A stretch of 64,000 nucleotides of DNA from Psilocybe cubensis (GCA_017499595.2 CM039005.1:1240001-1304000); one strand, 5' to 3'. Shown: positions 1 through 59,577, counted from the stretch's first letter. Translations and numbers: made by a program. The notes: generated from the letters alone by a model not told the origin.

Positions 1-531
1 ATTTGGTTAAGAGCGTGTGTAACCTCTCTAAAATGTCGAAATGGAATGTAACCAGACACCAATGGAGCAAGAAGGGGCATAACAAGAAGCACTATGTGCA
101 TTGAATCATTGTCCTTGTCGGATATCGGAACAGATATCACTTCCAGAAGAGGGACTGCATTATTGCGAGGATCTGCGCGCATCTCATCCGAGTTTAGATG
201 CTGTAGCAGCGATATGTTGTCATGCTCAAAAGTCGACCTCTTTATCACGACTTTGAGGCCATCTTTAACACGAACAGCATCTATAACGTTGTGCCTCTGT
301 GCAGGAGTCTATTAGTAACCTAGTAAACTTGTCATTAAAAAGAAAGCCTCGCACCTCTAGTACAATTGAATCTTCACAATCTTTCATGGATTTGTAAAAG
401 TTCCGACGCTTTTGCCACGATGGTTTCCACGATGGATGATACCTGGGGCGTAGCATATAGCCAGAATCGCGGAGCACAGGTTGTAACTTAACCCATTCTA
501 CCTCTGCATCCATGAGTGAATCAGACATCAT
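1..531 (-). CDS. AgaK1-type (Agaricomycete-expanded) protein kinase-like gene, 5' part; runs off the window start
   Basis: Translates MMSDSLMDAEVEWVKLQPVLRDSGYMLRPRYHPSWKPSW...CEDS, then after an intron NVIDAVRVKDGLKVVIKR...DPRNNAVPLLEVI. Clearly paralogous to the genes at 47568 and 52434. The W..LQP.L...GY.LRPRY.P.W.PSW N-terminus is typical of this family. Confidence 0.8.
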
Positions 532-1583
532 GATTGTGTATGAGTTTTGCCCAGATATGCAAAGAAATGCTACATACATTTGACCATAAAATAAATGTGA
601 AAAAGCATCAAAAACTTAAGAAAGAACGAACGTTTCACGGTTTAAATTTGGTTGAACACAATTTTAACTGTTCGGTCCTAACTCTTGGTTGCAGGCAAAC
701 CGAAGGCAGCTGGGGAAGTGATAAGCCAACTAAGATGTAACAGTAAGGATGCGTTGCTCACAATTTATTGGGGAGCTTGCTCCCCTTTGTACTGGTGGGG
801 ACCCAAAATGCTTAAGCACACGTAATCCACCAGTGTTTTGATCGTCACCCCGTGCGAAAATGGCACCCCGTGTGAACTTACCAGCGAGACCTGCCGAAGT
901 TTGTGATGCGGCAAGATTCTACCTAGAGCATGCCAGGTACTGGCATAGCAAATTAATCGTTCTAGGGTTAATTAAGGATCTTATAGCCCAAGGTGGGTAA
1001 GTGTCGTTTGTTCCGAACTTGATCATAAAAAGGTTCAAAAGGTTGAACCTCCAGCATATTTGATACAGAATGTTCCAAACGGGTTAAAACGTTACCTAAT
1101 ATGTGTACCAATTGAAGAAATTCTTGCAAATCTAAAGAATCAACAAGAAACCAGAAGTGTTGAACGTTGTAAACTGTCGCTGCCAGTTATTGTGTCGGGG
1201 CTGCCATCCTAGGGGCACCACGTCTGGTACTTCACTTAAAGCACTCCCATTCATTCTACTGAAATCTTAGCAATCGAACAAGCCCACTGTCGGGATAATC
1301 CAAGAATGCTCGTGTCGCTTTCTTCAAATCGACTTACTCTGGTTCCATCCTTTTCTGTGCATAAAAATTCCTTCATTTTCCGAGAACACTGGAATCGCGT
1401 TTGACTCCAGATTTATGATGTTGACGGAATGAACCTCGGTAAAGTGCATGTTTACAACAGAGACCCAGGTTCACACGACAATGCTCGGCGGTACTTTATT
1501 GCAATGCACCTCAAAGATGACGACCATTACTACAGTACACTCTTCATCCTCTCACTCAACTCCTTGGTCAGCAGAGTGGACCT

Positions 1584-3738
1584 ATGACCATCATCCTAAC
1601 TGTTGCCTATGTTTTTGCGGTCGTCGGAGCAGCTAAATTAGTTGCGAAATTTTTAACATACAACAGAAGTCGAATTGCCTATCCTCCAGGCCCCAATCCC
1701 AAACCAATATTCGGCAATGCTTTTGACTTTCCTAAGTATGACGCTGCGATGGAATACTTGAACTGGGGAAAAAGATATAACAGTCAGTGGTGTATTATCT
1801 GTCTCTCCTGCAAGTTATCATAATGACTTCACACTGCAGGTGACATTCTTCATGCCGAAGCGTTGGGAAACCATGTCGTGATTCTTAACAAAAGGGAGGA
1901 TGTAGATGCTATACTTGAGCAGTCTGATCGCGCAAAGCTCTATTCAGATAGACCCCACGTGCCTATTTTTAAGATGTGAGTCGATAAACCACAAATCTGG
2001 TTGAATAACTTCGATGATTGGTTATAGAATGGGTTGGGAGTATAATTTTGCTATGCTTCGATACGGCGATGAATGGAGGGAACACAGAAAAATCACAAAC
2101 CAAAACTTCAACCCGCAAGCAGCGAAGCAATATCAGTCGCTTCAACTGGAAAAAGTCGGTCAACTACTGCAAGGTCTTCTCGATAGCCCAAAAGATTTTT
2201 TAGAACATGGCAAAAAGTATTCCTTCGCAATTTCCTGTTGTATATCTCAATATCTCATGATTTACACAAGGTTCTCGATTGCACTTACTATGGCTATGAT
2301 GTATGGATACGAGGTTAAATCTATAGACGATCGAGCTGTTTCAGTGGCGGAAGAAGCTCTGGCTCTGGGGACCCAGTTGCTCACTCCGGGTGGCACTCTC
2401 ATTAATGTTATTCCTGCACTGCAATACGTCCCAACATGGTTTCCGGGTGCTTGGTCTCGAAGGCTGGCTGCAAAAGTACTAGAATTATCCGAGGAAATGA
2501 AGAGAATTCCAACTGAGTTTGTAAAGAAGAGCTTGGTATGCTTGTTCCCCATCAGTATCGATGTAGCTGTTGACGGTATACGCAGGCTGAAGGCACAGCT
2601 TCTCCATCTCTTGTTACTGAATTCTATGAAAGGAAATTCGCGGTCGGTGCCACTCAACATGAAGAAGATGTTATTAACAACGTTGCCTTCACGGTCTATG
2701 GAGGTAAAAAATTCAATCTTCAATGCTCGTATGACAAGGTGCTGAAATAACTGTTCAATTAGCTGCCTCTGACACAGTAGCGACGTTTTCTTAGCCTTTC
2801 TGTGATTTACGCTGAAGCCTCCTTTCATCTGACAGACAATATCCGCGACAAGGACTTTCTTTTATACTATGGCAGCTAACCCTGACGTCCAAAGAAAGGC
2901 TCAGGCTGAACTTGATCGAGTGATTGGCTCGAAGCGACTACCCAATTTCGACGACCGCGAGTCGCTTCCTTACATTGAAGCTATATACCGGGAGGTTCTC
3001 CGATTTAGGCCTCCTGTTCCAATTGGCATTCCTCATTGCTCCACTCAAGACGATCATTATAAAGGCTACTATATACCTAAAGGTATTGTCGGCTTTGACT
3101 GTTTTTTCTGAAAACTTTTAATAGTATCTTTGCACTGAACAGGGACCAGCATCTTTGCAAACATATGGTTAGTGCTAATTATCACTATTTCTTCCACTTT
3201 AATCCAATAATAAACAACCCTTTTCAAGGGCCTTAGCTCATGATGAAGCAGATTATCCTGAACCGCACTCCTTCAAACCGGAAAGGTTCCTAGACGAAAA
3301 TGGCCAGTTGAACGATGACGATAGAATATTGGCATACGGTTTCGGGCGAAGGTAAGCCATTCATAAATTGTCAATCGATACGTTTCTCATTTTTAAAACA
3401 GAGTCTGTGTGGGAAAACATGTTGCCGGTGCTACCGTCAGTACTCCTTTATTGCCGAGTGCATATCCCGAATCAATTTCAATTTCAATTGAATATTGCTT
3501 CATAGATGTGGATACTTATAGCATCGGTCCTTGCTTGCTTCAACATCACACAGGCTAAGGACGAAGAGGGCAACGACATTGAGATCAACCCCGATTATGT
3601 CGATCTTGGATTAACCAGGCGAGTAGTAACGTACTCATCTTTCCACCTCGTTTTTGACCAGATTTAAATAGCATAAAAAGTGCATTCGAGTGCTCCTTTG
3701 TTGTCCGTTCTCAAGAAGCTCGGAAATTGATTGCATAA
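1584..3738 (+). CDS. Cytochrome P450 (CYP5144/CYP64-clan-like), multi-exon
   Basis: N-terminal TM plus YPPGP hinge, I-helix GAASDT (14-nt exon 2763-2776), EXXR (YREVLR), FKPERF, heme motif YGFGRR/VCVG split by an intron at ~3352-3402, stop TAA at 3736-3738. Confidence 0.93.
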
Positions 3739-11400: not shown

Positions 11401-11812
11401 TTGACCGCACAAACATTTCCTTAGTCATATGTACGTCCTTCACGCCATCAAGGAGGTTGGTGGTGCGCTGCAGAATTCGCGTACCAATAGCGGCAAAACC
11501 CAAATGCCATGTCACAAGAAAAACTGGGAACTTGAAGTTGAGGGTGTTGTAGAGGTAGTTGTTGTAAATGATGACAGCAGAGCTCAGGGCGATCCAGATA
11601 GGGATGACCACCGCTGAGGAGAGCTTGTACTTGGCTGCCGTTGGGGTGGCCTTGGGCGGCTGTGCGGACACTGGAGAAGGCAGGTCCATCGACGACGACG
11701 ATGGCAATTTGACTTGCAACATCTCTTGTTCCTCGGCCTGTTTCTCCTGGTCGTGCTTTGAAGAAGACATGGATGAAATGCTAGAAATGCTTACTGAGTT
11801 CCTGTTAGGCAT
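8430..11812 (-). CDS. Triose-phosphate/nucleotide-sugar transporter family protein (Cryptococcus CAS4-like)
   Basis: Five exons join in frame: 11812-11309, 11240-11070, 11011-10736, 9169-9103, 8485-8430. Protein contains WIALSSAVIIYNNY, FPVFLVTWH, SNTAYLYLSVSYIQMLKAF, EASRLVMIQ, AGVFK|DILLITGSVIIFGSEITPLQVFG|YSIALGGLVLFKTSGGK*. The start codon is less certain. Confidence 0.88.
10338..10369. repeat. Perfect inverted repeat (15-bp arms) inside transporter intron 3
   Basis: ttcgcgagagagatt-ca-aatctctctcgcgaa; the arms are exact reverse complements. Confidence 0.9.
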
Positions 11813-12068
11813 AGTGAGAAATAAGAAGGGCCTACAGTGTGGGATACGCCAAACGGTCGTCGGTGGTGCTGGGTGCTGGTGGGGGAGGAGGAGAGTCGGG
11901 CTGGCAGGTGGTGAATGGGAGAATGATGCCAAAACCAGAATACGGCGGTGTCAAATTTAATTTGCCAACAAGAGTGCCAACCGCCAGCGCCAGCCACAGC
12001 CATCAGCACGTGCATGCACGGACCCAACTTGCCTTTTCCGCTCCTTTTCTTGTGCTCGTCCCAGCGCC

Positions 12069-44513: not shown

Positions 44514-44676
44514 ATGTGATGCGGTTTTGCGCATATAATTCGCCACACTCGCCCATCTGCTCTGACGCATTGCATCGACGACTTCCCTCGCCTCTCGTCG
44601 ACGGGACCACTAGCGACTACTCCCCCAGTCGGTTGTTATCCAAACTTCATTGACCCATTGCATTCACGACCCATTA

Positions 44677-44740
44677 CATCGCATCGCATCGCATCTCATC
44701 GTATTGCTCAAGCTCACGCCATCAACATCAACAACATCAA
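44677..44740. repeat. (GCATC)n and (AACATC)n short tandem repeats downstream of the MFS gene
   Basis: catcgcatcgcatcgcatctcatcg ... atcaacatcaacatcaac. Confidence 0.7.
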
Positions 44741-45876
44741 CATGCACCGTCAATCAGCTATAGATATACCATACACATACACATACCGTACAACCCCGCC
44801 AAACAGTTGGCGGATCCCACGTTCGTTTTGTTTATTCTTATTCGGCATTTAATGCGTTTTGCGGGTTCAGTTCGGGGTGGCGTTGGCGTGTGGGCTTTCA
44901 GCTTGGGTCCAGTTAAATGCCTTGCTTGCTTGCTGGAGCGCTCGCGCTCGCTCCGAGTCGTAGGTTTATTCTTTCTTGGAGTCGGAGGTTTAGGTTTAGG
45001 TTTCCAGTCACGGTTGGAACCATGGACTATGGACGATGGACCCATGTAAATGCAGCCCGAAGATTATCACCCACCACCTCCATCCCGTTTTTTTACCCCC
45101 TCCCATCCCCCCCTTTCCTCCTCCCTACCTCAGTTCTACAATACCGGATACACATTAATGAAAAAGAAGAAGAAGAAGAATTCAAGAAAGTACTTTTACA
45201 TATCACTTAATTCAATAATCCCCGTTTGGCCTTTCCAATAGTCCAAATTTAAACGTCAAACGTCAAACTTTTGCTCACTGTTTTTTACACTTTTACATTT
45301 TTTTTCTTTTGGAACACGCCGCTGCATATCATATCATCATCACCAAGCCTCCCATCACCCCTCCCCTCCAACTCCTTTTGCATGCATCTTTCTTACTTGT
45401 TTTTTTACAGATAGAATTTGTTGTTGTTATATTTTACATTTTATATTTTTATAATTGTATACACGCGGATGTGGATGGTGCATCTTAGACTTTGGTTTTC
45501 ACTGTCAATGATATTTGGGTTCCGATGGCCCTGTAGGCTTTAGGCTGAAGTAACCGTAGCCACGAACAAGTGCCAAGTGGGCATCATCTGCTGGATGATC
45601 ATAAGCGCTACTCTGCTCGTGCTCTTGTCGACAAACACCAATCAATAGAATCTGGAAACAAATGGCGTTCATACAAAAATACTTCAGTTAATACAAAATA
45701 AAATACGATGGGTAGCGTAACTATCATCAACATGGCGTGTATTATTGATGCGTATGATGTATGGAGAGAATTTAAGCATTTCGGCGGTTAGGGCGGTGGA
45801 GAGGTGGCGATCACGGTTCGAGTCTGTGTCTCTGCAAGATGTGGGTGGGGGATTAGATCAAGATCAAAATCACTGA

Positions 45877-46501
45877 TCACAACTGGACACCACAACGCGC
45901 GCATTTTTTCTGGGTGTCGGAGCTGTGGGGCGAGGGCGTCATATTTGAGTGTTATGAAATGAACTGGGTGGAGCTGGGGTTGACTTACAATAGACAGATG
46001 AGGCCGCAGGGGAAGCAGACCTGTGGATTGCGCGCCATAGATGGCGGGTGCACGTCAGGAGATGGAGGATGTGCAATTGTAAGTTTTAGCTGGGACGTAC
46101 GACTGCCATTATGATCCCTAAGATACCGTAGTTTGTTACAACCTCATGCTGTCCGGCCGCACACTGCGCAAGAACTGTGCGTGAAGTGGTTTGCATAAGG
46201 ACCTCAAGTTACAGTACATACATATTCAAAGGTAGATGGAGATTTACGTACGTTGATCGCGGTACTGCTGGCCTGCAATGGCTGCACCCATCACTGGGTC
46301 GACTGGTCCCAGCGAGGTGCCGCCTGTTTGCTGTTGGTTTGCTGGGTTCCCCGATGACGCGTGCATTTGCTGCATGGGATACTCTCCCCTTGGAGTGTTT
46401 GTTTGCGGGAACGGTGCGGCGTGGGGCTTCTCAGAATGGACCGATGTGGGTGCTTGAACTTCATCCTGGTGCGTGGGTCCCGCCTGCTCTTCCTTAAACA
46501 T
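45877..46501 (-). CDS. BRI3/DUF2367 (LITAF-like) small Pro/Gln-rich, Cys-rich membrane protein, copy A
   Basis: Four exons give MFKEEQAG...GAAIAGQQYRDQ|LLAQCAAGQHEVVTNYGILGIIMAV|VCFPCGLICLF|SDTQKKCARCGVQL*: a C..H knuckle, a hydrophobic segment, then CxxC. Confidence 0.85.
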
Positions 46502-47567
46502 GGTGAACTCGATGAAATTTGCAGGTTTTCGTGTGGTTTTGGGCTGTGGCGAAGGGTGCGGGGAAAGGCTATGTAGGCAAGCGTAATCCTCGATGGCATT
46601 TATATATGAACTTGGTTGGATGAATATTTTTGGCAGGGTTATGGACTATCATGGAGCGCTTGATGGTGATAGGAGATGAATAAAGTATGCCCTCCGCTCG
46701 TATAGGTCATCGAAAAAGTTTGATCTTTTAGATTGAACATTGCGTTGTACAGATTTGGCTTAAATTGACAAGTTCGAAACTGTTTTAGCTGCCCAGACGA
46801 GTAGTAGGAACACAAAGAACGATTAAAAAGATGGGCATATGACGACTTTGCCGACTTTGGAGTTCAACGCGAGAATTTAAGAGGTATGCACTTGTTTTTC
46901 GATATCTATGATTGCCTTCTTTGTGCTTGAACATGGTAATGTTACTTGTCATCGTGATCCAGAGTCAAAAGCGATTCCAGTAATGTCCAGAAAAATAGAG
47001 GAGATCCAAAGTAATTTGAAGGATGAGATACAAATCACTGTGAGACTTATCCAGTGTAGTAGCCTCCCAAGTTCTGGGTCGATTCGTCGTACGTTCAAGG
47101 GAAGCCGGAAGTGCCAGAAGCGGAGCCGCCCAAACTCCAGATCTGCACGAAATTTTATGTTTGGTGTAAATATTAGGTAATTTAATATCCGTTTTCAAAC
47201 ATTTTGTTGCCAATGACTGACTTTGGCACGTTTAATGAACAGATTTAGAACAAACAAATGTTACGTACCAATTTTGCATTAACTTCGAACAAACATCTTT
47301 TCGCGAGACTACTCATTACGACTACTGTTTCCCCATCCCTGTAAGATTGTAAGTAATACATCCTTTTTATGAACCTACCAATTTTCAGTCAACTTTCTAG
47401 CTGTTTCATAGGTTCCAGCTGGCTCCGACAGCAAAAGGTTGAAATCATCGTGTTCATCCACCAGACCTTTGTTAGTTCGCTCTTCTCAGGCTCTCTTGGC
47501 GCTGTGACCTTACTCGAATGCTTGCAGCTCTGTTCCGGGATTTCGAATACCACTGTAGTTAAGTACA

Positions 47568-49015
47568 ATGGGCAAGTTACTCACTCCTGCAGAACTAGAA
47601 TGGGTTAGGCTGCAACCATTACTCCTGGAACGTGGGTATAAGCTACGTCGTAGGTATCAACCATCGTGGAAACCATCTTGGACAAAGCCATGGAACTTCT
47701 ACAAATACGAGACAGAATGTGAGGATTGGTTTCAGCTGAAAGTGGGACACTTATTTTCATGAGTTTATTTAATTACTGATGATGTTTCTGTAGACGCGCA
47801 ATGTTATTGATGCAGTACGCATCAAGGACGGTGCTAAAGTTGCAATAAAGAAGACAATCTTTGAATACGACAACATACCTCTCTTACAGCATCTAAATTC
47901 GGATGAGAGGCGTGCCGACCCCCGGAATAATGCAGTTCCTCTTCTTGAAGTGATTCCTGTCCCGCAACCTGACGATGACAGTGATTCAGATCACATAATG
48001 CTCCTTGTTATGCCAAGGCTTGCTCCGTTAGTGTCTGGCCATATTCCATTCCGCCATGTCAGAGAGGTTACATACGCTCTTGACCAAATTTTTCAGGTCA
48101 GCGCTTACAATTCAAGTTTTGAACTATCTGATAGAGTTGATTTTTAAAGGGAGTTGAGTTTCTACATGATAATGGCATTGCTCATCGGCAAGTGTTTCTC
48201 ACTGCGATTGATATGTTATAATCATGGAGATGTATAGGGACGCATGTATGCTCAATTTCATGATGGACCCAACTGATGTGATACCTGGTGGTTTCCATCA
48301 CTCAAGGCAGTACCTAAAACCCAATGGTAAAACTCGGATTCGTGTTAGGGATCGCTGCAAGGTTCCATCACTCAAGTACTACATTATTGATTTTGAAACT
48401 GCCGAATACTTCATGCCAAACAGTCTATGCATTGGCCACTACGGTCAGGAGAAAGAAGCCCCCGAATTGTCGACGACAGTACCCTTTGATCCTTTTAAGC
48501 TTGACATATACCAACTTGGGAAGTTGGTTCACAAACTAATGCAGGTAAATCCAATCAATGTCAATCAATATTGTACTATAATTCATTTGCCTCGCTTTTT
48601 GTAGGAATTCGACGGCCTGGAACTTCTTTGTCCCCTCCGTGATGCCATGACCCACAAAGAACCCAAGTTGAGGACAGATATTTCACAAGCTCTCCGGATG
48701 CTGCATAATATTGTGTCTTCCCTGGAAGAGACCGATCTTTCCAGGGTTATCCAGAAGCGAGATATTTCTGAAGAACTACTAAATGAATGTAAAGCAGAGC
48801 TTGCTCGAAAATTAGCAGCACCTCAATTAGGGTGGGTACATCCGAGACGAAAGTTACCTCAACAAATGATGGCTCCTCAAAGAGAGTCGGTACCTCCTAA
48901 ACAAGAGCCAATTTCTCGGGATCACCCTTCAAGTGGGCGCCGATTCTCATATATTTGCAAACGAAGTTTTGCAAAGTTTACCAAGTCAGAGAATGCCTTC
49001 ATCTTTTCACTTTGA
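47568..49015 (+). CDS. AgaK1-type atypical protein kinase, copy A
   Basis: GYKLRRRYQPSWKPSW, VAIKK, DPRNNAVPLLEVI, LVMPRL, FLHDNGIAHR|DACMLNFMMD (GC-AG intron 48188-48237), YYIIDFET, APEL..PFDPFKLDIYQLG. Confidence 0.88.
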
Positions 49016-49297
49016 ATTTACTGTCAGTGATATTTGAACTACTGTACAGTGATTTGTAGAGAATATAACCACTATAACACTTTTTTTCTTCCATACTACT
49101 GCAGGAAACCTTTGCAAAACCTGTGATTCTGTGATTTGCATACTCAGAGCGGTCAAGTCCAGTGACACGGCTGCTTCAGCCCAGTCAACCTTAAATGGGT
49201 ATTCAAGACACTTTTCCACAGCTTGTACGTGATGTTCCCAGTAATCGATCATATAGTACATGCCTTCACAACGTAATGTCGTTCATGTGTTTAATTA

Positions 49298-50572
49298 CAG
49301 CTACTTTCATATCGATAGACCTAAAATGAAAATATACACATACAGGCGGACTTTGAACCTGTTGTAAGCGAGTCATTTCGGCTATGTTTCTATTTTGAGC
49401 TGACTTTGAACAGTGGCACGATCTTCAACGATGCGAAGTCGAGAAAGAAATAGCCTTAAAAATGTCATTGGAGTGAAATCTGAATGAAAAAAAAAACCTA
49501 ACACTATAGCATCACCCTATAATCGACTCTGAAAAAAAAATATCTTCCCCTAAACTTTGACGTGTTGTGTAGGCTCGTACACCAGTCGTTTCTGACTCAG
49601 CATATTTCGAGCTCCGCTCGGTTTCGTCAGAAACGGCTGGGCCAAACGGTTCGGTTTTGGCAGAGTCACGCTTTGTCACGTCGGACTTGGTGAAATTCGA
49701 ACAACTACGTCACCAACTACCGCGTCGTACTCGATTGCGACCACTACCCGTCCCCCTCCCCCTCGAATTCTGAATCCTCTGAATCCTCAATAACATCGTA
49801 CTCTTCCTCTATTTCCTCAAGATCCATGTCAAGGTCAAACCCTGCATGCTAGACTCGCCCATACTGTCTGAAGCTGAAGCATGATTTGAATCTACAGAGG
49901 ATGTAGAGACTGCATTTGGGACAATCTGGGTATCCAGAGGTTCACTTTTGATGGAGGTGAGATGTGCAAGTATGTCCCTTTCATTGTCTGTTTCATCTGC
50001 AGAGACTGGGTTCATTGACCGCCCGGACCTGCCATCTAATCTTAGAAGCAGTTCACCTGCGCCATGATATATGATTTTTCGGCTCAAATTACAAGTCATT
50101 TTTTTCTCAAAAATTTTTTTTTTCGTGACCTTGTAAAAATGAATTTTATTATAAAAGAAACCTATCTAAATGATTCTGTAGACAACTTTTTTTTAAGTTG
50201 TGGAAGGTTGTTGTTGAGGCAAATCGCGTTTTTTTCACTAAGTCCGAGTCACAAAACGAGGATTCCCTCAAATCCGAACCGTTTGTCCCAGGCCTTCTGT
50301 GAATCTCTCTCTTTTCGCACTCCGATCAATGTTTGACGACATAAATAAAGACAACATTTGTGCAAACATATTACTCGGTACCTGCCTTATCTAGAAAAGA
50401 GACGAGATTCACAGAAGGCCTGGCTCGCGAGGCTACGTGTTGTGTTCTATATATATGCCCGCCGAATATCTTGGCATATTGCCGGACTCACGTCCAAGCT
50501 CCGCCAATTGAAATTTCATTCTCCGTATATGTGTAAATTTTGACATTAGGCCTATCAATATGAAAGTAGCTA
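49298..50572. mobile_element. Degenerate non-autonomous TIR element (~1.3 kb), TA-flanked, Tc1/mariner-like termini
   Basis: The left end TA|cagctactttcatatcgatagacctaaaatgaaaatatacacata matches the reverse complement of the right end (TA|tagctactttcatattgataggcctaatgtcaaaatttacacata). The TIRs are ~50 bp and imperfect. A frameshifted acidic protein tail lies inside (~49747-50070, -). Confidence 0.75.
50288..50423. repeat. Internal inverted repeat (20-bp perfect core, ~29 bp with one indel)
   Basis: ccaggccttctgtgaatctc (50288-50307) versus gagattcacagaaggcctgg (50404-50423). Confidence 0.85.
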
Positions 50573-50989
50573 TAAGCGCCAATATGCTATATTGAGCTTG
50601 CGGCCTTGCCTATCCAGTTGCACTTGGTTAATTAATTTGCTTACGTTTCAATTTGAAGTGCAACCACTACGCTCCTGTGCATCCCAAAGTACGATGACCT
50701 GAGGCATATTTTATGTTTTAGGATTGGATTTGTAGCTCTTTTACTCGCCCCTTGGCTTGGTATTCTCTCTGTTTCTGTTTCTACAGAAGATGTGTGACGA
50801 CCTCGGGCGCATTGGCAAAAATACTGTAAGCTCTTCACCATTTCTTACATCGGACCGTTGTCATATTCTGATTTGTTTATAGTTGGCATGACGTGTGTGT
50901 TATAGACACTAGCTGGGCTGAAGCAGATTAAGTATTACATGTCGGGATTGAAAGAAACGATTGCGAGTTGAAGCTAGATTGTAACGTGC

Positions 50990-51374
50990 GACTGCTGTTA
51001 TGATACCACAGATATTGTAGCTTGTTACAGACTCATGATTTTTAGACGCACGCTGAGAAAAAACTGTAGGTGAAGGGGTTTGATAAGGATCACAGCTATG
51101 GTATACTCAAAGAAAGAGGAAGATTTACTTACGTCGATCACGGTACTGTCGTCCAACATTGTAGCCATTGCGGGGTCAACTGGTACTGTTGTAGTCCCGC
51201 CTGGGTGTTCGGGTGACGAGTACTCCAATGGCGCATGCATTTCCTGCATTGGATACTGTCCACCTGTGGTGTTTGGTTTGGGGTACCGCAAGGCCTCGGA
51301 CATTACAGAATAAGCGGTGGGGGTGCTTTGACTTCCACTTAGGGCATGGATCGCGCTTGCCCTCCCTTGGACAT
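50990..51374 (-). pseudogene. BRI3-like pseudogene, copy B
   Basis: ATG TCC AAG GGA GGG CAA GCG CGA TCC ATG CCC TAA (early stop). Retains GGQYPMQ and PVDPAMA homology. The exon-2 donor is changed to gcacgt, and exons 3-4 were not found. Confidence 0.8.
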
Positions 51375-52433
51375 GGTTGAATTCGATGATTGGAGGTTTT
51401 AGTGTGGCGAAGTTGTGTCGAGGGAAGGGGGAAAGGTTAAATGTCCAAACGAATACCTTGATGGCATTTTTATGCAACATTGGATGTATATTTTCGGCAG
51501 TATTATCGACTGTGATGGTGCCCGGAAGGTGAGCACGATGTGAGAAGAGGTAGAGAAGCAATGTCCGAGTCCCTGTACAGATCATTGTTATTTTTGAGCC
51601 CTCCGATTGACCATTGCAATGTACAGCTTGGTCGAGTTTCACAAATTCAGGGCTCGTCTAGAATCCCAGGACATACCAGGAGACCGTAAGAACCAAAAAA
51701 TGACGGAGTACTAAGGACACACAAGGTATAATTCATATTTGCTGGATCTGGTGTTGAATGGGAAAAGTAAGTGCACATTAGTTTTCCACCTCTACGGTAG
51801 CCTTCTTTGAGAACGTCACGGTAAAGTTTTTGTTGAGGAAGTTCTCGTGTATGGGTCTTTGTTGTCCGAATCGTGATCCGTAATAACGGTCAGATGCTAA
51901 AATGTCCCGGAAAATCAAAGCATTTCGTGAGACAGAAAAAAAAAAGCCAGAGTAGGGAGAGAAGCGGCACAGGAATTTGTCGGGCATGTCCAGAATCGCT
52001 TTCTGGCTCGATTGCTAACGAATTTGATAGTAAGAAAGCCAGAAACTCAAAGTTGCCCACGGTGTCACCCTGAGTTGGCCGCGACCGTAGATCGTGATCC
52101 TTTTGTACTAATATTAGGTAATGACCCGTTTGCAATGATGTGGGGCAAATAACCCAGTTTTGGTCCTTTTGGTTGACAAAAGTTAGCACAAGCCAATTTC
52201 GAACACATCTTGCAGTGCAACAACTCTTTGTTCAATTAGCCCGTATCCCTAAACTCCCTATAAGAATGTAAGTATTGGATCTTTTCCGAGTGTCAATGCA
52301 AGCGTGACGATGAATAGCTATCTTTAGTCGCCTCATAGCTAGTACGCTTGTAACTTCCCGGTGCCTCAGAAACCGAAAAGTTGAAGATACTACCTCGTTC
52401 ATCCTGTTCAGCGCCAGCTTCTACATAATTAAA

Positions 52434-53806
52434 ATGGAATGCTTACTCACGGATGATGAATTAGAATGGGTTAGGTTGCAACCTTTTCTCCTTCAACATG
52501 GTTATAAGCTACGTCCTAGATATCATCCATCGTGGAAACCATCGTGGAAAAGGCCATGGAATTTCTACAAATACGAAGCAGAATGCGAGGACTCAATTCC
52601 GCTGAGAGTGCGACAATTTTTCTCTAACATTTATCCAGTCACTAATACATATTACTTGGGTAGACGTACAATGTTATTGACGCAGTGCGCATAAAAGACG
52701 GCGTTAAAGTTGCAATAAAGAGGACGATTTTTGAATACGACAACATACCGTTGCTACAGCATTTAAACTCGGATGAGATGCGGGCGGACCCCCGGAATAA
52801 TGCAGTTCCTCTTCTTGAAGTGATCCCTGTTCCTCTATCTGTTCCTCTATCTGACGAGGATAGTGATCCGGATCATGTAATGCTCCTCGTTATGCCCAGG
52901 CTTGCTCCGTTAGTGTCTGGTCATATTCCATTTCAACACGCCTGCGAGGTTACAAACGCTCTTAGCCAAGTTTTCCGAGTTAGTGTTACAATTTTAAGGA
53001 AGGCCCAATCTAATACAGTAATTTCTATAGGGCATCGAGTTCCTACATGACAATGGCATTGCGCATCGGCAAGTGTCTGATTGCTGCCACAGTTTATACG
53101 TTATACTCATGGAGATGTTTAGGGACGCATGCATGTTTAATTTCATGATGGACCCAACTGATGTGATACCTGGCGGCTTCCACCACTCGATACAGTTTTA
53201 CCAACCTGATGGTAAAACACTCATTCGTGTCAGGGACCGCTGCACGGTTCCATCGCTCAAGTATTACATTATTGATTTCGAAACTGCCGAATACTTCCCG
53301 CCAAACAGTCTATGCACTGGTCTCATTGGACAGGAGAAGGCTGCCCCCGAATTATCGCGAACTGTACCTTTTGACCCTTACAAGCTGGATATATACCAAC
53401 TTGGGATGCTAGTCCACAGATTGATGGAGGTGATTATGTTGAATGCCAATCAATAGTAGTCGATTTATTTACCTCGACTTTTTTGCAGAAATACGATGGC
53501 CTGGAATTTCTCAGTTCCCTTCGTGATACAATGACCCATAGTGAGCCCAAGTCAAGGCCAAATATTTCAGGATGCATCAGAAAATTGCATGATATGGTTT
53601 CCTTGATGGGGGAGGCTGATCTTTCTCGAAATATTAAGCTGCGAATGGACTGGATCAAGCCTCATCCACAAAGTGACGTTCCAAGTGGGCCTGCTCAATT
53701 GGAGTCAGTGTCTTCTTTCAGTCGGTTTTCAATGCGCCAAAGATTGGCGTATCTTTGCAAGAGAGGGTATTTATTTACTAAGAAGGCCTTCCTTTGTTCA
53801 TCATAG
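52434..53806 (+). CDS. AgaK1-type atypical protein kinase, copy B
   Basis: Same exon structure as copy A: GYKLRPRYHPSWKPSW, VAIKR, HR|DACMFNFMMD (GC-AG intron 53069-53122), YYIIDFET, PFDPYKLDIYQLG; divergent C-terminal tail. Confidence 0.88.
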
Positions 53807-54016
53807 ACACGGTACATGGGACAACATTACATATCTAGTTTGCTTGTTTCAATTAAACATACATATCATTGTCATCATCGAAGTCATTCCCCTCATCCAT
53901 GAATGTAGGTGCTTCGTGTCCATTGCTAACTTCTGTAGGGGCAGAGGAAGAACCTCCCAAAACAGGTTGAGGTCCAAATATGTTAGAAAAAGGGCGTGGG
54001 CCTCGTGGGACAGGCC

Positions 54017-55140
54017 TTAAACGGACAAACCAATTAGCACAGGGGTAGAACGTGTCAGTGACATCTCAAACAGTTCACACCTTTGCTCTTGTGTATTCGT
54101 AACATTCTCTGTATTTGACTCGAGATCTTCGAAAGGCTGATGAGGCCTGCGTCTAGGGGGAGGAGGAAGACTCTCATAATTTAAGTCGGAAACTTCGCGT
54201 TGATGAAAATGCCTGAAATATACAATCATATCAGCCAAATGATTACCAGGATGACTGGTATGCTACACACGCGTTCTCTTCCTCATTACGACGCCAGCGC
54301 TCCATCTCCGAAAGGTAAGGGCGACGGACAGGAAAATTAGCCCATCCTCCTTCTCGTTGAATGGGTTGTTCCCCCCTTTGGATGAAACGATGTCATACAT
54401 GATGTTAATTAAATGGAAATGGCAAAATTTATGATCAAATTTATAGTACCTTGGTGCTGCCGGGGTTTCTGTACCCAACTCCACTCTTGTTGTAGCCCTC
54501 GATCGAGTCCTGTGATTTCATTTTTCACATCTGATCAACTCATTAAATTCGATGCACGTACGGGTGGTTGCTTCCTTCCTCAGGTGGAATCGGTTGAGGT
54601 CCTTGGGGTGATCCCCTCGTAGTCCCATTGAACGTGAGTCGAGAGCTTCTTTCTTGGCTGGGTTGCTTACAAATTTGCAGATTATTTGTCATATTGTTGC
54701 GCCGGCGTCTGTTCTCCTCAGCGATTTCCTGTAATTGTCTACTATTTTGCTAAAAAAACGTAAGTTTTTGAAAAGGTAGTTATCGGTATTAATGGTTCCA
54801 CCGTGTATGTCTCCATTAATAAGTTGAGTTCTTTTTCAAAGCCAACAACTTCGACGGTCGTTGGACTTTTTTTAAAAAAATTGTGGGCTGTTTTTTTGAC
54901 CTTTTCCCTTAATAGTAAAACAGAATTTTTTATTCTTCTCAGGTATTAGCTAATGATATTTCCAACAAGGAAACGACTTTTGAAGGCTTACCTTTCAAGG
55001 TTTAAGAGACTTTGGTCCCTCAGGTGAGTGTTCGATTCTGCCTCAAAGGTGGCACGGAACTCTTCAATTTTCTCGAGAAAATTATCAAGACGCTCTAGCT
55101 TCTCCTTCACCGATAGGTGAAGACGACTCTCGTGTTGGTT
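54017..55140 (-). pseudogene. Degraded hypothetical gene
   Basis: Collinear protein-like pieces interrupted by stops: a coiled-coil (LSVKEKLERLDNFLEKIEEF), PRYYKFDHKFCHF...RKRTRV*, and HLADMIVYFRHFH. Confidence 0.4.
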
Positions 55141-57564
55141 AGTAGGGGGTGACATAGTAATCAACTAAAGCAGAGATCGAGAAGATAGAGTGTCGAAGTA
55201 TGTAGAAAAATCTTTGAAGGTATACTGGCTTTTTATGCAGATTCTGATTCTTCGTCAGCTTTGAATTCCAAAAGAATATAGAAATATTCCAAACACCTGT
55301 TTCTCCCTTGTCAGCCTGAGTAGCTTGTGATGAAAAATGACGGCATTCTTGTTCCTTGCTCATTGTTCTGTCACTCATCGATGGAGGTAATAACACACAA
55401 GCCAAATACCTGGATGAGGGCTTATCGATGAAAAATTGTACACATCGACAATGCCACTGAGTGCATTGGGGTTGTGGGAACTGGCAGCGATTGAAACGTA
55501 TTAATCCGGGTAGGAAACAAGGCCACAGCGGACCTCAGTGGCACAAAACCACAGAGATTTGGTGGGAAGTTTGCACGACTGAAGACAAAACAAGTAAATA
55601 GTTAGTGAAGCATATGGACAAGTATCAGGGTGGGTACCTTACTCAAGCATCGCGCAGGTGTTAAGACACTAGAAGTGCCATCCAGACACATATTTTCTGC
55701 TAAAAGGGGAAACGAATGGAAAGAGAGATCGTCGGATAAAGGACAAACAAAAGCTGCAAACGTCCGTGGGATGAAGAAATTCGTAGTCAAATTTTTGAAT
55801 ATCAGGAACGAGGGAACAGAGTGTCAGACTCCATGCTTCGATGCCTGGATGACTAGTTGAAGACATCAAGGAAGAATGACTCGACAACTTACGCTGAGTA
55901 ATGGATGTGTACCTCACTGAAAACATAAGCGCCCGCTGAGAGACACCGTGAAGTCTGCACATACAACGTTATGGTCCAGGTGGTCAAAAAAGTCGAGACT
56001 GACGGGCCAGATAATTGAGTTTTCTCTTAGTGGTTATGGGTGAAACGTGCGCGCCAGCAGAGCAGATATCATTCCAAAATCGACTAATTGTTCCCAGAAG
56101 ATTGGGCTGGCACATCGAGGTCGAACCCAATTATGATCGTTTGTGCTGGTGTATTGACTAGATGCAACGAGGCCTAACCGAATTATGATCGTGTATACCG
56201 ATATATTGACTAGGTGCGAACCAGAAGTTTCCGTGGATGACCGAAGGAAGACAAATGCTCGAATATGACTCGGCGTGGTGGAGACACCAAGGGAAGCGAT
56301 GGAATTGGAGCGGACACTTCACAGGGTGATTAGATCGATTTATGATGATTGTGCCAACCAACCAACCAACCAACCGATATTCGAATGTGGATGACTGACA
56401 GAACCTCAGGGAAGAAAGACACATGAACCAGCTTGTTGTATCCTGCAGTAATTTAGAGACGCACCACACACATCTACAGTGACACACCTCCTATAAGGGG
56501 ATGAGCCGGGTGAGCCGGGACCCTCTATGACCCTTCGAAAGATGATGCATTCGTTCCAATCCACTGGAGTCGAGGATATCGTGGCACCAAACACGGTGCT
56601 TTTAGCAAGCTGGCATGAAAGTCAAGGGAGACGAGTTGAGTCGTGGCTTGAATCAAGGCTGCAGGTCCACAACAAGAAAGTTATCAAATGATCGCTACCT
56701 GTTCGACTACAGACCACCGTCGAAAATCTCAGCAGAGTAAAGCAGCTCGCCGCCGAGGCATTTAACAAGCCTGGAGGCCTGGTCGAGGAATTGAATTTGT
56801 CAAAGCCCGTACAACTTAGTGCCAGTCGAAGTGTAAATCTCAGTACAACCGTGACCGGTTGACCCCCGTTGTCGTATGGCTTTGATTTTCAGCGGTTTGA
56901 GGCGAGTCAGAAGACGAGTCCTGAGTCTGCGCATTGGAATAAGAAGAAAAGTTCTGAGTCATGAGTGGGCAACTTAGGGGTACCCACCGGGATGAGCCGT
57001 TATCGTACGTTGCTGGATATGTGTATCTTAGTACTTACACTATATCTGAATGTTTGTTTTTCTTATTGAGCGTATCTGGACTACGATATCCCCTGCAGCG
57101 CTATATAGCCTATGTTGCTCATTTGCTTTGAATAATACTAGGCATTTTGATCAGTGTATAAGAAACAGTGCGTGGTTTCCGTGCTTTGATTGTTGCGCTA
57201 TTATGGGATGTTGATACGGGCGGTTATTGTATTTATGAACAGGGTGGCATGACCCGTTGTATAGACCGTAAAGCGCTGTTTTACCCGTGCTCATATTGAA
57301 AAGACAGTCGAGATCCAATAAAGGCATACGTATAATAAAACTTTCATTAATACAGTGCGTAGAAATATTATCATCGACGTTGCGTGTATTGATATGATGC
57401 GTGGAGAGGCCTTCAAATAAGAATGTGGATTAAGAATCGACGTCCGTCGAGGTATATAGCGAGGCATAGGGGTATAAGTAAAGGTGGTTGGGATGCTGCA
57501 AGTGATTATGATTCTAATGTGTTGATCGTGTTTTGAGTCTTCAAGATTTATTCTGGAGATTAGC

Positions 57565-58157
57565 TCAACGAGACAACGAGACACCACAACGCGCGCATTT
57601 CTCCTCTGTGTCGGAGCTGTGGGGCGAGAGGTCACGTTTGAGCGCCATGGCATCATTATGGTACGAATCAGTGGAGTTGAACTTACAATAGACAGATGAG
57701 ACCGCAGGGGAAGCAGACCTGTGGTTTGCGCAAAATAGTATGGTTGATGCATGTCAGGAAAGCAAGATAATTGAAACGTACGACTGCTGTTATAATCCCA
57801 CAGATACCGTAGCTTGTTACACGCTCATGCTGTCCGGCAGCGCACAGGGCAAAAACTGTATGCGAAGGTGTTTTGATAAGGATCTCGGTTATGGTATATG
57901 CAAAGGAAGGGTTACTTACGTTGATCGCGGTACTGCTGACCAGCGATGGCTGCTGCCATCGCGGGGTCAACTGGTCCTGGTGTAGTGCCGCCTGGTTGTT
58001 GGGGTAAGGGGTATCCCGATGGCGCAGGCATTTGCTGCATGGGATACTGTCCGCCTGTTTGTGGGTACGGCGAGGCTTGGGGCATTGCAGGATATACGGG
58101 CGGGGGTGCCTCGACTTCCGCCTGGGGAGTGGATCGCGCTTGCTCTTCCTTGGACAT
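57565..58157 (-). CDS. BRI3/DUF2367 (LITAF-like) protein, copy C
   Basis: MSKEEQARSTPQAEVEAPPPVYPAMPQASPYPQ...AAAIAGQQYRDQ|LFALCAAGQHERVTSYGICGIITAV|VCFPCGLICLF|SDTEEKCARCGVSLSR*; same intron positions as copy A. Confidence 0.88.
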
Positions 58158-59577
58158 GGTCGAAGTTGGTAAAATGGATGCTTGGTTGTGCGCGGCTGGT
58201 CGTGTCGAGGGCAGCGGGGAGAGGATACGTGACAAAGTGCGGGCATCGATGGTATTTATACATGCAGGGTTTCAGTGATGCATATGTTTCTGGCTGGGTC
58301 GTGGATCGTGACGGACCATGCAAGGCGATGCATATCAGGTAGTAATACCAATACGGTTTTGGCGATGATTGCCTAGGCCGTTCACAGCGGATGCTGGATG
58401 CTGTAAAGCACCAGGCGCCTCCATTCACTCTATAAACAAAAACCGATGAAACAAACGCCCAAAGGCGTGTGAATCAGAAGGGCGATATCGGATAATAGCA
58501 GAGATTTGTGGTTTTTAAAATGAGTGCACAGGAGATGAACTGATAGAGGTGGATAAAGCTGGCAATACCATGTTTGGTGTGTCCAATCACCTGTGAATGT
58601 TCATCTTGGCATTGTTGAAAACAGTGGCAAAAACACTGAAGTACATGCGATGACTCGAGAAAGTCGGGTACTGTTTGCCGCAACGGTGTACGAAGATATG
58701 ATTCTCTATAGGCGTAGAAGAGCTATACCAGCGCTACTTGGCGTTATGCCGAGTGCTCGAAAACGGGTAGGTTTTTGGGCAGATCAAGTATGAGCATCGC
58801 ATTACCCAAACTATTAACCCAATACCTGGCTGAACCATGAGTTGGATGATCAGTTGTTATTGCTGTCCGTGTCCGAGCTACTAACACGATTGCTGATATA
58901 AAGTTTGCAGATAGAGGAATTCTGGTCGTCCAGGACAGAATTATGAATAGCTTTGCCTAGTTCGGGCGCGAAAATACATTAGAAAGTCTACGGATAGACG
59001 AGTCGCCAACTAGAATACGCGTTCCAAGGCTAAGAGCATAGCACAGCCTCTCCCGCTTACGCAACCGAAATTCACTCTCCGCTTGAAATAGGTGCCGTTA
59101 TGCTGACCTAATACGCGTCGAAAAGTGGGTGGTTAGGCGTTCCGCGTTCCGCGTGTAGCCTGTTGACCTTCTCAATGCCTTAATTCTAGTTGGTTCTTCG
59201 TCGAGAAAACTGGATTCTGAGTCCGCCTAGGTCCGCCTTGCTCGATTTTGCAGTCCTCAGACCGCACACGTTTGCAGGAGATTTGAATGCCAAGCAGGGC
59301 GACCGCATGTATTAGACTATAAGGGGCCATGGTTTGCCAAAAGAAGTGTTTAGCCCCTGGTGGGTGATGATGTGCAACGAGCTGATACGCACAATAATGA
59401 GGCCTTCTCATTATCGCCTTACTTCTTTCTCCACGACCTTGCCCATTGACGACCCATTGAACGAAATTAACGACATTATTGAACGACCATCAACTCGATC
59501 ACCCACGACTTCTGCACGTTACACACCCCACGTCACAGACGCTTTTGCTGGCCATTCTGCCAGTAAAGAACTCTTCG

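Follow-up and report, generated by a model that had tools for sequence, protein, structure and literature searches.

The BRI3 (Brain protein I3) family, PF10164 and formerly DUF2367, carries two zinc knuckles, the first of which is a CxxC motif in animal BRI3 and a Cx4H motif in the fungal proteins. We know of no function described for a fungal member. LITAF/SIMPLE-like proteins and small PPxY adaptors of Nedd4/Rsp5 combine a proline-rich, PPxY-bearing N-terminus with a zinc site that is split by a membrane-inserted hydrophobic hairpin. BRI3 proteins follow the same general design, which does not imply homology.

In the Coprinopsis cinerea kinome, the AgaK1 kinases are placed in the 'Other' group. 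Compared to typical kinases they are devoid of the glycine-rich loop and of the lysine at the HRDxK position. A table in a published report (PMC4704728) names CC1G_09799, one of the C. cinerea AgaK1 kinases, as induced by bacteria.

In tandem arrays with chimeric junctions that evolve by birth and death, a partial duplication takes along a fragment of a neighbouring gene and is fused to the 5' region of another gene, the chimera is duplicated again, one copy turns into a pseudogene and transposon insertions vary between runs. The locus described here shares these features and is unusual only in its tidy head-to-head layout, which mimics a designed module.

In this study, we analyse BRI3 and AgaK1 genes that face each other in a window of 64,000 nucleotides of Psilocybe cubensis DNA (CM039005.1:1240001-1304000; all positions are counted from its first letter). 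An earlier note on this DNA had read the arrangement as a selected, co-regulated module for signalling, defence or cell death. We find that the locus is probably a lineage-specific chimeric segmental duplication within a large local AgaK1 array and not a conserved two-gene module.

Results

Organisation of the locus

The order given in the earlier note, BRI3-A (-), kinase A (+), a mobile element, a BRI3-B pseudogene (-), kinase B (+), 3.7 kb of DNA and BRI3-C (-), was recovered with all elements at the places claimed. Its span, 45877..58157, missed a third kinase copy, K0, which lies outside of it at 3-528 on the minus strand. The window holds the following features:

3..528, minus strand: K0, third kinase copy, truncated at the window start, with its ATG at 528, corresponding to P0006 (409 aa)
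529..1583: K0/P450 intergenic region, putative source of the kinase-side part of both spacers
1584..3352, plus strand: cytochrome P450, head-to-head with K0, exon 1 in the open reading frame 1521-1823
45877..46501, minus strand: BRI3-A, GT-AG gene model with 4 exons, ATG at 46501, stop at 45877, intact, 133 aa
46502-47567: spacer A, 1066 bp, between BRI3-A and kinase A
46546..46645: BRI3's own 5' flank in spacer A, common to BRI3-C
46765..46839, minus strand: relic of the P450 5' tip in spacer A, start codon and ~24 codons
47568..49015, plus strand: kinase A, AgaK1 family, gene model with 5 exons, intact, 410 aa
49296..50572: multi-copy non-autonomous element, 1277 bp, 48-bp terminal inverted repeats
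about 50978..51374, minus strand: BRI3-B pseudogene, TAA at codon 12, indels, exons 3-4 missing
51375..52433: spacer B, 1059 bp, homologous to spacer A throughout its length
52434..53806, plus strand: kinase B, gene model with 5 exons, intact, 383 aa
54749..56699, minus strand: spliced transcript with 8 introns, CT..AC joints in both RNA-derived runs
57565..58157, minus strand: BRI3-C coding region, 131 aa, spliced model identical to P0001 (JR316_0008915)

Self-BLAST revealed 77.8% identity over 1191 nt between kinases A and B, and K0 is 74% and 73% identical to kinases A and B, respectively, at the nucleotide level. BRI3-C shares 72% with BRI3-A and 75% with BRI3-B. Homology between units A and B is collinear from BRI3 through the spacer to the kinase, in agreement with the proposal that gene pair and spacer were copied as one unit.

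DNA contigs from two other runs span the same arrangement. In run X7 they cover 44557-47946, 47925-49295 joined to 50573-51269, 51251-52816 and 52795-60000; contigs of run X6 likewise cover long parts of the locus. The block containing unit A (at least 44557-49295) diverges from the X7 contigs by ~4-9%, compared to only 0.1-0.5% for 50573-60000.

The 'TE' of the earlier note is a mobile element, here redefined as a 1277-bp multi-copy element bounded by inverted repeats at 49295-49342 and 50575-50528. Its DNA word depth is 145-290 versus about 12 nearby, and its TA flanks suggest the Tc1/mariner type. The element is absent from run X7, in which a contig joins 49295 straight to 50573. Its absence there and the death of one BRI3 copy bear out the birth-and-death evolution that had been suggested for the locus.

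The description of the 3.7 kb as decayed DNA needs correction, since the minus-strand transcript with its eight introns is located there. Its joints were present in two of two RNA-derived runs and in neither of two DNA runs. The longest ORF of the reconstruction encodes 167 aa, and one exon searched against Pfam gave no match. The transcript lies outside all numbered gene models identified here.

The BRI3 genes

The assignment to BRI3 is supported, as PF10164 was matched at E<=0.01 by 35 of the 36 relatives in the alignment (best E 5.6e-10), several of them exceeding the gathering score. For BRI3-C itself (P0001) the match spans profile positions 4-104 of 106, with E 2.9e-4 and 21.8 bits against a gathering score of 25.9. 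BRI3 was the only Pfam family found among the 36 relatives at E<=0.01; no LITAF-domain profile matched, so that the term 'LITAF-like' used previously stands as an analogy only. Searches by sequence profile revealed no solved-structure relative of the BRI3 proteins. All 36 relatives exhibit a Cx4H motif, a hydrophobic hairpin with FP.G and a CxxC motif, and the Cx4H...CxxC pattern is also found in both BRI3-A and BRI3-C; C84, H89, F107, P108, G110, C122 and C125 are invariant across the 36 sequences. The putative Cys/His zinc ligands flank the hydrophobic hairpin, which is predicted to insert into the membrane. The N-terminus is proline-rich, and PPxY is found in 25 of the 36 relatives as well as in BRI3-C, where PPVY is located at residue 19.

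BRI3-A (exons 46252-46501, 46101-46174, 45989-46020 and 45877-45922) is transcribed and spliced according to RNA-derived data, with one contig piece ending precisely at 46252. The database model P0018 (JR316_0008911) is mis-spliced past residue ~108. BRI3-A has kept Cx4H...CxxC and lacks PPxY. Concerning BRI3-B, the donor of intron 2 has in addition changed from GT to GC. In BRI3-C, all three coding introns are backed by joints in two RNA-derived runs, and the transcript extends to at least 58835, including a 5'UTR intron (joint 58588>58643). Tree branch lengths are 0.027 for BRI3-C, 0.33 for BRI3-A and 0.67 for BRI3-B. The dN/dS between BRI3-A and BRI3-C is 0.33, which argues that BRI3-A is not simply decaying. 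BRI3-C, which has hardly changed and retains its own upstream region and the family motifs, is most likely the working orthologue. It would be a membrane-hairpin zinc protein and probably serve Rsp5/Nedd4-type ubiquitin ligases as a PPxY adaptor.

The kinases

The assignment to AgaK1 proved correct by sequence homology, with 31% identity over 336 aa to a C. cinerea 'other/AgaK1 protein kinase' (BLASTP, E 5e-36) and a profile match at E 1.6e-47. Both share the N-terminal extension E..WV...L..G..LRPRY.P.W.PSW as well as the motifs DA.R..DG..V.IK, H-RD....N.MMD, YY.IDF, PE and DPFK.DV, and in both cases members are locally amplified. The Psilocybe/Galerina subclade departs from this family in that DFG is replaced by DFE or DYE. 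With regard to the catalytic residues (beta3 Lys, HRD Asp, catalytic-loop Asn and DFG Asp), an alignment of 50 sequences shows K, RD, N and the 'ID' D in at least 80% of them, and lacks the glycine-rich loop and the HRDxK lysine. The gathering score of Pfam Pkinase (PF00069), 31.7, was not reached by single kinases (P0006 24.8, P0008 24.9, P0010 27.9 and P0007 21.4 bits; P0005 no match) and was passed only by P0003, a fused model of three kinases (57.4 bits); single exons gave no match. With Foldseek, the AlphaFold model of P0006 (pLDDT 81.8) matched PDB kinase chains, 500 or more of them at E<=0.001, the best being CaMK, DAPK and PAK structures at E of about 1e-10. The model indicates a eukaryotic protein kinase fold.

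P0006 is 98-100% identical to the K0 region in tblastn. Kinase A consists of exons 47568-47741, 47794-48096, 48150-48187, 48238-48544 and 48605-49015, and its intron 3 is of the GC-AG type. Both kinases A and B are transcribed and spliced in RNA-derived runs. For kinase A, the splice joint 47740>47794 is present, and a contig piece (48237-48542) agrees with exon 4 within 2 nt; for kinase B, one piece covers 53164-53427 and another starts at 53487, beside the start of exon 5 at 53489. The two RNA-derived runs with kinase A are the same ones that contain BRI3-A. The database model of kinase A (P0005, JR316_0008912) misses exon 3 and part of exon 2, and that of kinase B (P0007, JR316_0008914) is partial.

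In the kinase tree, K0 groups with A and B (SH-aLRT 100), and the branching among the three is not resolved. Their dS values (A-B 0.81, A-K0 1.05, B-K0 0.96) would fit K0 branching first, and the dN/dS values of 0.18-0.22 point to continued purifying selection on the kinases. In P. cyanescens, the sister-group kinases lie in one gene model (P0004) shared with a related P450. At least 12 related kinases are present on the same 3.34-Mb contig (JR316_0008845, 8847, 8853, 8855, 8856, K0, 8912, 8914, 8936, 8937, 8944 and 8945). Two of these 12 were seen to face BRI3, the neighbours having been inspected for the three kinases within the window.

Chimeric spacers

As previously noted, homology between the two ~1.06-kb spacers runs from end to end, and the short motifs quoted from them are present. 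Their local alignment scored 53 compared to 12.8 +/- 1.2 in 100 dinucleotide shuffles, and the reverse-complement control scored 14, so that the homology is restricted to the same orientation. Identity is 69% over 898 aligned positions, versus 67-82% for the kinase introns; the spacers are therefore no better conserved than introns.

The part of the spacers next to BRI3 differs in origin from the remainder. In spacer A, 46546-46645 matches the region upstream of BRI3-C (58202-58305) with 66% identity over 104 nt (E 4e-8; score 30, shuffles 12.8 +/- 1.6). Further upstream, 46765-47269 is collinear with the region upstream of K0 (1656-992). The K0/P450 intergenic region matches spacer A at 46957-47002 (1412-1369) and 47139-47269 (1133-992) and spacer B at 51905-52036 (1385-1250) and 52102-52151 (1111-1057), with scores of 30 and 20 against ~13 +/- 1.3 in shuffles.

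K0 is paired head-to-head with a cytochrome P450 and not with BRI3. Pfam p450 scores 92.7 bits on 2833-3111, and the P450 part of P. cyanescens model P0004 matches 2032-3352; exon 1 would belong with these later exons by strand and order. Both spacers hold a relic of the start codon and ~24 codons of this P450. In spacer A, 46839-46765 aligns to P450 positions 1583-1656 and now meets a stop after 17 codons; the wider match of 46765-46883 to 1656-1540 scores 37 (blastn E 2.5e-11). Due to this relic, each spacer must be regarded as chimeric, composed of the BRI3 5' flank and a segment of P450 tip, intergenic region and kinase. The homology to P450 ends at ~1656, and beyond this point spacers A and B still match each other. 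Since exon 1 of the P450 continues uninterrupted past 1656, the break lies in the spacers and not at K0. The contrast between coding and decayed sequence suggests that copying went from the P450 to the spacers. An RNA-derived contig covers spacer A from BRI3-A exon 1 to 47108, which would fit use of a shared bidirectional region.

Distribution of the gene pair

The synteny check that had been proposed for other species showed no BRI3-kinase adjacency in record metadata and one metagenome locus. The comparison was based on contig assignment, locus tags and accession order, with a word-filtered sample of kinases. In Galerina, one scaffold carries both BRI3 (KDR80329) and the closest kinase (KDR80043), at a distance of 286 accessions. 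The metadata place the two on different contigs in P. cyanescens, C. aegerita, D. fragilis and E. angulata. No shared contig was found in the metadata for 118 word-filtered kinase matches and the further BRI3 records looked up, and an independent metagenome BRI3 locus on an 11-15 kb contig contained no AgaK1-type kinase. BRI3 genes themselves form local clusters with 1-2 genes between copies in C. aegerita (CAA7264400, 402), and similar clusters are seen in Somion occarium (CAL1712644, 645, 648) and Abortiporus biennis (KAL4249073, 076).

Within the window, sensitive tblastn and blastn searches detected neither a BRI3 remnant at K0 nor a kinase remnant at BRI3-C. The partners are not intact in every unit, as the BRI3-B pseudogene lies beside an intact kinase B.

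Discussion

The reading of this locus as a selected module is not supported, in view of the P450 relic, the dead BRI3-B and BRI3-C without a kinase, the lack of adjacency elsewhere in the metadata and spacers conserved to the same degree as introns. A role of BRI3 as adaptor, substrate or inhibitor of the kinase found no support. What fits best is the scenario that the earlier note had named as its own refutation, namely a kinase that landed beside BRI3 and was passively duplicated.

In the sequence of events that we propose, the ancestral state would have been K0 head-to-head with the cytochrome P450. A segment consisting of kinase, K0/P450 intergenic region and the first ~73 nt of P450 coding sequence would have been copied and joined to a BRI3 copy, ~150-260 bp upstream of its ATG, thereby replacing the distal 5' region of this gene and creating a new head-to-head pair. 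This ~3-kb chimeric pair would have been copied once more to give units A and B. Subsequently, BRI3-B would have become a pseudogene, BRI3-A would have diverged and lost PPxY, and the MITE-like element would have inserted between the units, with the kinases under purifying selection. Each kinase presumably keeps the promoter it arrived with. Transcription of BRI3-A probably starts from the other side of this intergenic region, where the captured promoter once served the P450, and co-regulation, if any, would therefore be a by-product of promoter capture. The transcription and splicing of BRI3-A and of kinases A and B, the dN/dS values, the RNA-derived contig over spacer A and the BRI3 clusters with intervening genes in C. 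aegerita, S. occarium and A. biennis count against this scenario.

An alternative is that BRI3-A was re-purposed after chance juxtaposition as partner, substrate or regulator of the adjacent kinase and is co-regulated with it via the shared bidirectional region. BRI3-A would then have given up PPxY and kept the zinc-hairpin membrane anchor, in a locus that is strain-variable like defence or recognition loci. The intact, spliced and transcribed state of BRI3-A and its dN/dS relative to BRI3-C speak for this, as do the transcription of kinase A in the same two RNA-derived runs, the RNA contig that reaches 600 nt from BRI3-A into spacer A, the higher divergence of the unit-A block from X7 and the bacteria-induced listing of CC1G_09799 in the published table. 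However, kinase B is intact and expressed next to a BRI3 pseudogene, K0 has no BRI3 partner, the adjacency was not seen in other species (metadata and one metagenome locus), and the spacers show no conservation beyond that of introns. Moreover, the divergent haplotype block, which covers at least 44557-49295, may be unrelated to the gene pair. We consider such a functional pair unlikely. Still less probable is a more specific form, in which chance promoter capture created a strain-variable unit, a BRI3 paralogue without the ligase-recruiting PPxY is driven from the former P450 side of the bidirectional kinase promoter and serves the atypical AgaK1 kinase as membrane anchor or regulator, and the 4-9% divergence reflects balancing selection in recognition or defence.

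Two structural explanations have very little probability. K0 and BRI3-C could be the halves of a former third head-to-head pair whose spacer took one breakpoint of a ~56.6-kb inversion (about 1657-58305), so that the locus would once have consisted of three tandem units. The partial homologies of spacer A to the BRI3-C flank (46546-46645) and to the K0 flank (46765-47269) are indeed complementary and non-overlapping, and strand orientations are compatible with a simple inversion. Yet the K0-side homology enters intact P450 coding sequence, and as exon 1 runs on past 1656 there is no inversion breakpoint at K0. Comparison of the flanks, 1657-3200 and 58306-59800, revealed nothing in common (scores 13 and 14, the shuffle level), and position 58305 is crossed without a break by DNA contigs of two other runs. 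This makes the inversion highly improbable. A collapsed or mis-joined paralogous array has next to no probability: mis-assembly is a known risk with tandem paralogues and nothing specific points to it here, whereas the copies, at 72-78% identity, are too divergent for assembler confusion. Because the independent DNA contigs of runs X7 and X6 bridge the same order, the arrangement is not an assembly artefact.

Conclusions

The repeated pairing of BRI3 and AgaK1 genes has the appearance of an ordinary duplication accident and not of a proven functional module. Public gene models are wrong for both kinases and for BRI3-A, in part because of a GC-AG intron. Should the pair be a functional module after all, it would provide a first entry point to what the uncharacterised AgaK1 kinases do. 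For the fungal BRI3 family, the invariant Cx4H...CxxC hairpin and the widespread PPxY lead to the testable guess of an Rsp5/Nedd4 adaptor. The locus represents a clean and datable case of a module-like head-to-head pair that arose by accident, and cautions that repeated adjacency alone is insufficient for reading function.

Arrangement of the locus and gene models

Two divergent pairs, each consisting of a BRI3 gene and an AgaK1-like kinase gene, lie in the right half of the window, followed by a third BRI3 copy without adjoining kinase (BRI3-C); a third kinase copy (K0) lies near the window start. This confirms the gene order described in the earlier note. Some database proteins match window-encoded ones exactly and bear Psilocybe cubensis JR316 locus tags. 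Gene models were assembled by hand on splice signals, and the features are the following.

Features of the locus (window coordinates, strand, description)
3-528, minus, K0 kinase copy, found by self-BLAST, truncated by the window start
45877-46501, minus, BRI3-A, four exons, 133 aa, intact
46502-47567, spacer A, 1066 bp
47568-49015, plus, kinase A, five exons, 410 aa, intron 3 GC-AG
49296-50572, no strand assigned, mobile element with 48-bp terminal inverted repeats and TA flanks
about 50978-51374, minus, BRI3-B pseudogene
51375-52433, spacer B, 1059 bp
52434-53806, plus, kinase B, five exons, 383 aa
54749-56699 (overall roughly 53807-57300), minus, spliced transcript with eight introns
57565-58157, minus, BRI3-C, 131 aa, splice model identical to the database model P0001 at every residue

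In two other runs, DNA contigs span this arrangement as well, and mis-assembly is therefore ruled out. BRI3-B carries a TAA at codon 12, several indels and a GT to GC change in the intron-2 donor, lacks exons 3 and 4, and is a pseudogene. The public models P0005 (kinase A), P0007 (kinase B) and P0018 (BRI3-A) are all mis-spliced. Intron 3 of kinases A and B (48188-48237 and 53069-53122) starts with GC (GCAAGT) instead of GT and interrupts the codon immediately 5' of the catalytic Asp; this GC donor is probably the reason for the errors near the HRD motif in the public models of all three kinases.

By self-BLAST, kinases A and B are 77.8% identical over 1191 nt, and BRI3-A and BRI3-B are 72% and 75% identical to BRI3-C, respectively. 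The spacers match in collinear blocks from end to end, with a local alignment score of 53 as compared to 12.8 +/- 1.2 for 100 dinucleotide shuffles and 14 for the reverse-complement control, and the short motifs quoted for them earlier were found. Homology of the spacers along their length, and duplication of gene pair and spacer as a unit, are thus borne out.

The mobile element proposed between the two units is present in the window, its words being in 12- to 25-fold excess in the DNA runs, and absent from DNA run X7, in which a contig joins 49295 to 50573. To the left of this site, over 44557-49295 (BRI3-A, spacer A and kinase A), X7 differs from the window by about 4-9% (62/750, 59/1630, 34/379 and 80/1371); to the right, over 50573-60000, by 0.1-0.5% (1/697, 2/1573 and 38/7212). 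One X7 contig crosses this switch in divergence, and the divergent block reaches at least to 44557 on the left. Divergent kinase-A variants also occur in the RNA-derived run X10, and DNA run X6 looks mixed.

What had been taken for decayed DNA between kinase B and BRI3-C contains a spliced transcript from the minus strand, with eight introns of the CT..AC type. This transcript lies outside all numbered JR316 gene models identified, its longest reconstructed ORF has only 167 aa, and the exon tested had no Pfam match. Its 3' end and that of kinase B meet in one contig. Elsewhere in the window, the gene of an unrelated Ser/Thr kinase of canonical type (motifs GxGxxG, HRDLKPEN and DFG; long tail rich in serine and proline) occupies 4358-6568 on the minus strand, 4 kb from K0, and the stretch 8001-12000 is strongly asymmetric between the strands (GC skew +0.15 to +0.23, AT skew +0.19 to +0.30) with short ORFs mainly on the minus strand.

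The kinase and BRI3 families

The kinase shares 31% identity over 336 aa with a C. cinerea protein annotated as 'other/AgaK1 protein kinase', and a protein-kinase fold is predicted with confidence. It keeps the positions of the beta3 Lys, RD, Asn and DFG-Asp, lacks the glycine-rich loop and the HRDxK lysine, and has DFE in place of DFG; single kinase proteins score below the Pfam Pkinase threshold. Pfam searches with single exons gave no match for either kinase or BRI3, whole database proteins being needed.

Concerning BRI3, the Pfam family PF10164 matches P0001 over nearly the full profile length with 21.8 bits, below the gathering score of 25.9. Of 36 relatives in the alignment, 35 have a PF10164 match at E<=0.01; the LITAF-domain family was found in none of these 36 at the same threshold. 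A HMMER search of 1.84 billion representatives returned 185 relatives at E<=0.001, the named ones from many Agaricomycetes. C84, H89, C122 and C125, which flank a hydrophobic FP.G stretch, are invariant in the alignment; Cx4H...CxxC is present in 36/36 and PPxY in 25/36. BRI3-C has PPVY at residue 19, and BRI3-A is without PPxY. PPxY motifs are bound by WW domains of Nedd4/Rsp5 ligases, and BRI3-C is therefore a putative adaptor. A Protein Data Bank profile search with the BRI3 alignment gave no matches at E<=1. A complex prediction for the K0 kinase (P0006) with BRI3-C scored 0.00 against a mark of 0.34, with alignments unused, the partner fold uncertain and the pair non-cognate, and thus speaks neither for nor against an interaction. 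The available portions of the literature searched describe neither a BRI3-AgaK1 pairing nor a function of a fungal BRI3 protein (PMC4704728; bioRxiv 10.1101/349894).

Transcription

Runs X10 and X11, both from one study and presumed to be RNA, were treated as RNA-derived because of intron-less joints, which are present in them and absent from the two DNA runs. All three coding introns of BRI3-C are confirmed by such joints (57616>57687, 57716>57780 and 57855>57920), as is an intron in its 5'UTR (58588>58643), the transcript reaching at least to 58835. The BRI3-C leader is thus at least 680 nt long (58158-58835, own intron 58589-58642) and extends far past the flank of approximately 150 bp common to BRI3-A. 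For BRI3-A, one contig piece terminates exactly at the exon-1 boundary at 46252. Kinase A is represented by the intron 1 joint 47740>47794 and by a piece, 48237-48542, corresponding to exon 4, and kinase B by a piece at 53164-53427 and another starting at 53487. A single contig, 46283-47108, comprises BRI3-A exon 1 and 600 nt of spacer A including a relic of a cytochrome P450 gene; strand and start are not readable from contigs, and the contig would be compatible with transcription of BRI3-A from a captured P450-side promoter. The stretch 50704-52254, with BRI3-B and spacer B, has no RNA contig cover, which is not readable as silence.

Origin of the spacers

The upstream neighbour of K0 is a cytochrome P450 gene in head-to-head orientation. 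Its exon-1 ORF spans 1521-1823 with the ATG at 1584. The stretch 2833-3111 matches Pfam p450 with 92.7 bits, and 2032-3352 can be aligned with a P450 from P. cyanescens. Spacer A is collinear with the K0 upstream region in three blocks.

Blocks of spacer A and matching positions in the K0 upstream region
46765-46883, 1656-1540
46957-47002, 1412-1369
47139-47269, 1133-992

The first block spans the P450 start codon (P450 1583-1656 against spacer A 46839-46765, ATG included), and the relic in spacer A runs into a stop after 17 codons. The P450 homology stops at about 1656; the match between spacers A and B carries on beyond. At the other end, the homology is to the 5' flank of BRI3-C, spacer A positions 46546-46645 corresponding to 58202-58305. 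Since spacer A thus matches K0/P450 on one side and the BRI3-C flank on the other, spacers A and B are chimeras, in the order BRI3 proximal flank, about 120 bp without assigned source, P450 5'-tip relic, K0/P450 intergenic region and kinase.

We also considered an inversion, by which K0 and BRI3-C would be the halves of a split third pair. The neighbour of K0 is an intact P450 gene whose 5' tip is common to the spacers, and its exon 1 is uninterrupted past 1656, which places the breakpoint in the spacers and not at K0; the inversion was therefore rejected. No BRI3 gene adjoins K0, and sensitive searches revealed no remnant of one there and nothing above noise for a decayed kinase beside BRI3-C or a decayed BRI3 or kinase between the units.

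Phylogeny and distribution in other species

The kinases K0, A and B are united in a clade (SH-aLRT 100) with unresolved internal order, whose sisters are kinases of P. cyanescens and a further paralogue of P. cubensis. In P. cyanescens, two kinases of this type and a related P450 are fused in one gene model, which favours adjacency of kinase and P450 as the older arrangement. Kinase dS is 0.81 for A-B, 1.05 for A-K0 and 0.96 for B-K0, with dN/dS of 0.18-0.22. In the BRI3 tree, all three copies fall into a group (support 99, internal order unresolved) that also contains the orthologue from P. cyanescens and one further contig protein; the branch of C measures 0.027, that of A 0.33 and that of B 0.67. 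Between A and C, dS is 0.48 and dN/dS 0.33.

The same 3.34-Mb contig holds at least 12 related kinases. Among the three whose neighbours were examined, all inside the window (nine others lie outside), only A and B face a BRI3 gene. Galerina carries BRI3 and the closest kinase on one scaffold, 286 accessions apart; P. cyanescens, C. aegerita, D. fragilis and E. angulata have them on different contigs. Otherwise, the BRI3 records looked up had no contig in common with any of the 118 kinase hits. All these comparisons draw on metadata for a word-filtered sample and are for this reason a weak test of adjacency. A metagenome scan with a 6-sequence BRI3 alignment yielded two loci representing one sequence (99.4% identical), and this one independent locus has no such kinase. 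BRI3 itself forms local clusters in three other species, with one or two other genes between copies: Cyclocybe aegerita has a two-domain fused model and, two accessions further, another copy; Somion occarium has three copies in a span of five accessions, and the two copies of Abortiporus biennis lie three accessions apart.

Discussion

The earlier note read the BRI3-AgaK1 pair as a co-regulated functional module. Such a module is unlikely. Identity between the spacers (69% over 898 aligned positions) is on par with that of the four kinase introns (67-82%) and the BRI3 A-C introns (74-75%); the spacers show no special conservation, and their conserved islands are explicable without regulatory constraint. 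Moreover, one of the paired BRI3 copies is dead, K0 has neither BRI3 neighbour nor remnant, and the synteny check, within its metadata-level sample and one metagenome locus, showed no BRI3-kinase adjacency in other species.

The best fit is the scenario which the earlier note itself had named as refuting its reading, and passive chimeric duplication probably accounts for the locus. A kinase copy, carrying along its intergenic region and the tip of the P450 gene, would have been fused to a BRI3 copy, and the chimeric pair would then have been duplicated. Thereafter, the paired BRI3 copies would have drifted or died, and the unpaired BRI3-C would have stayed nearly unchanged.
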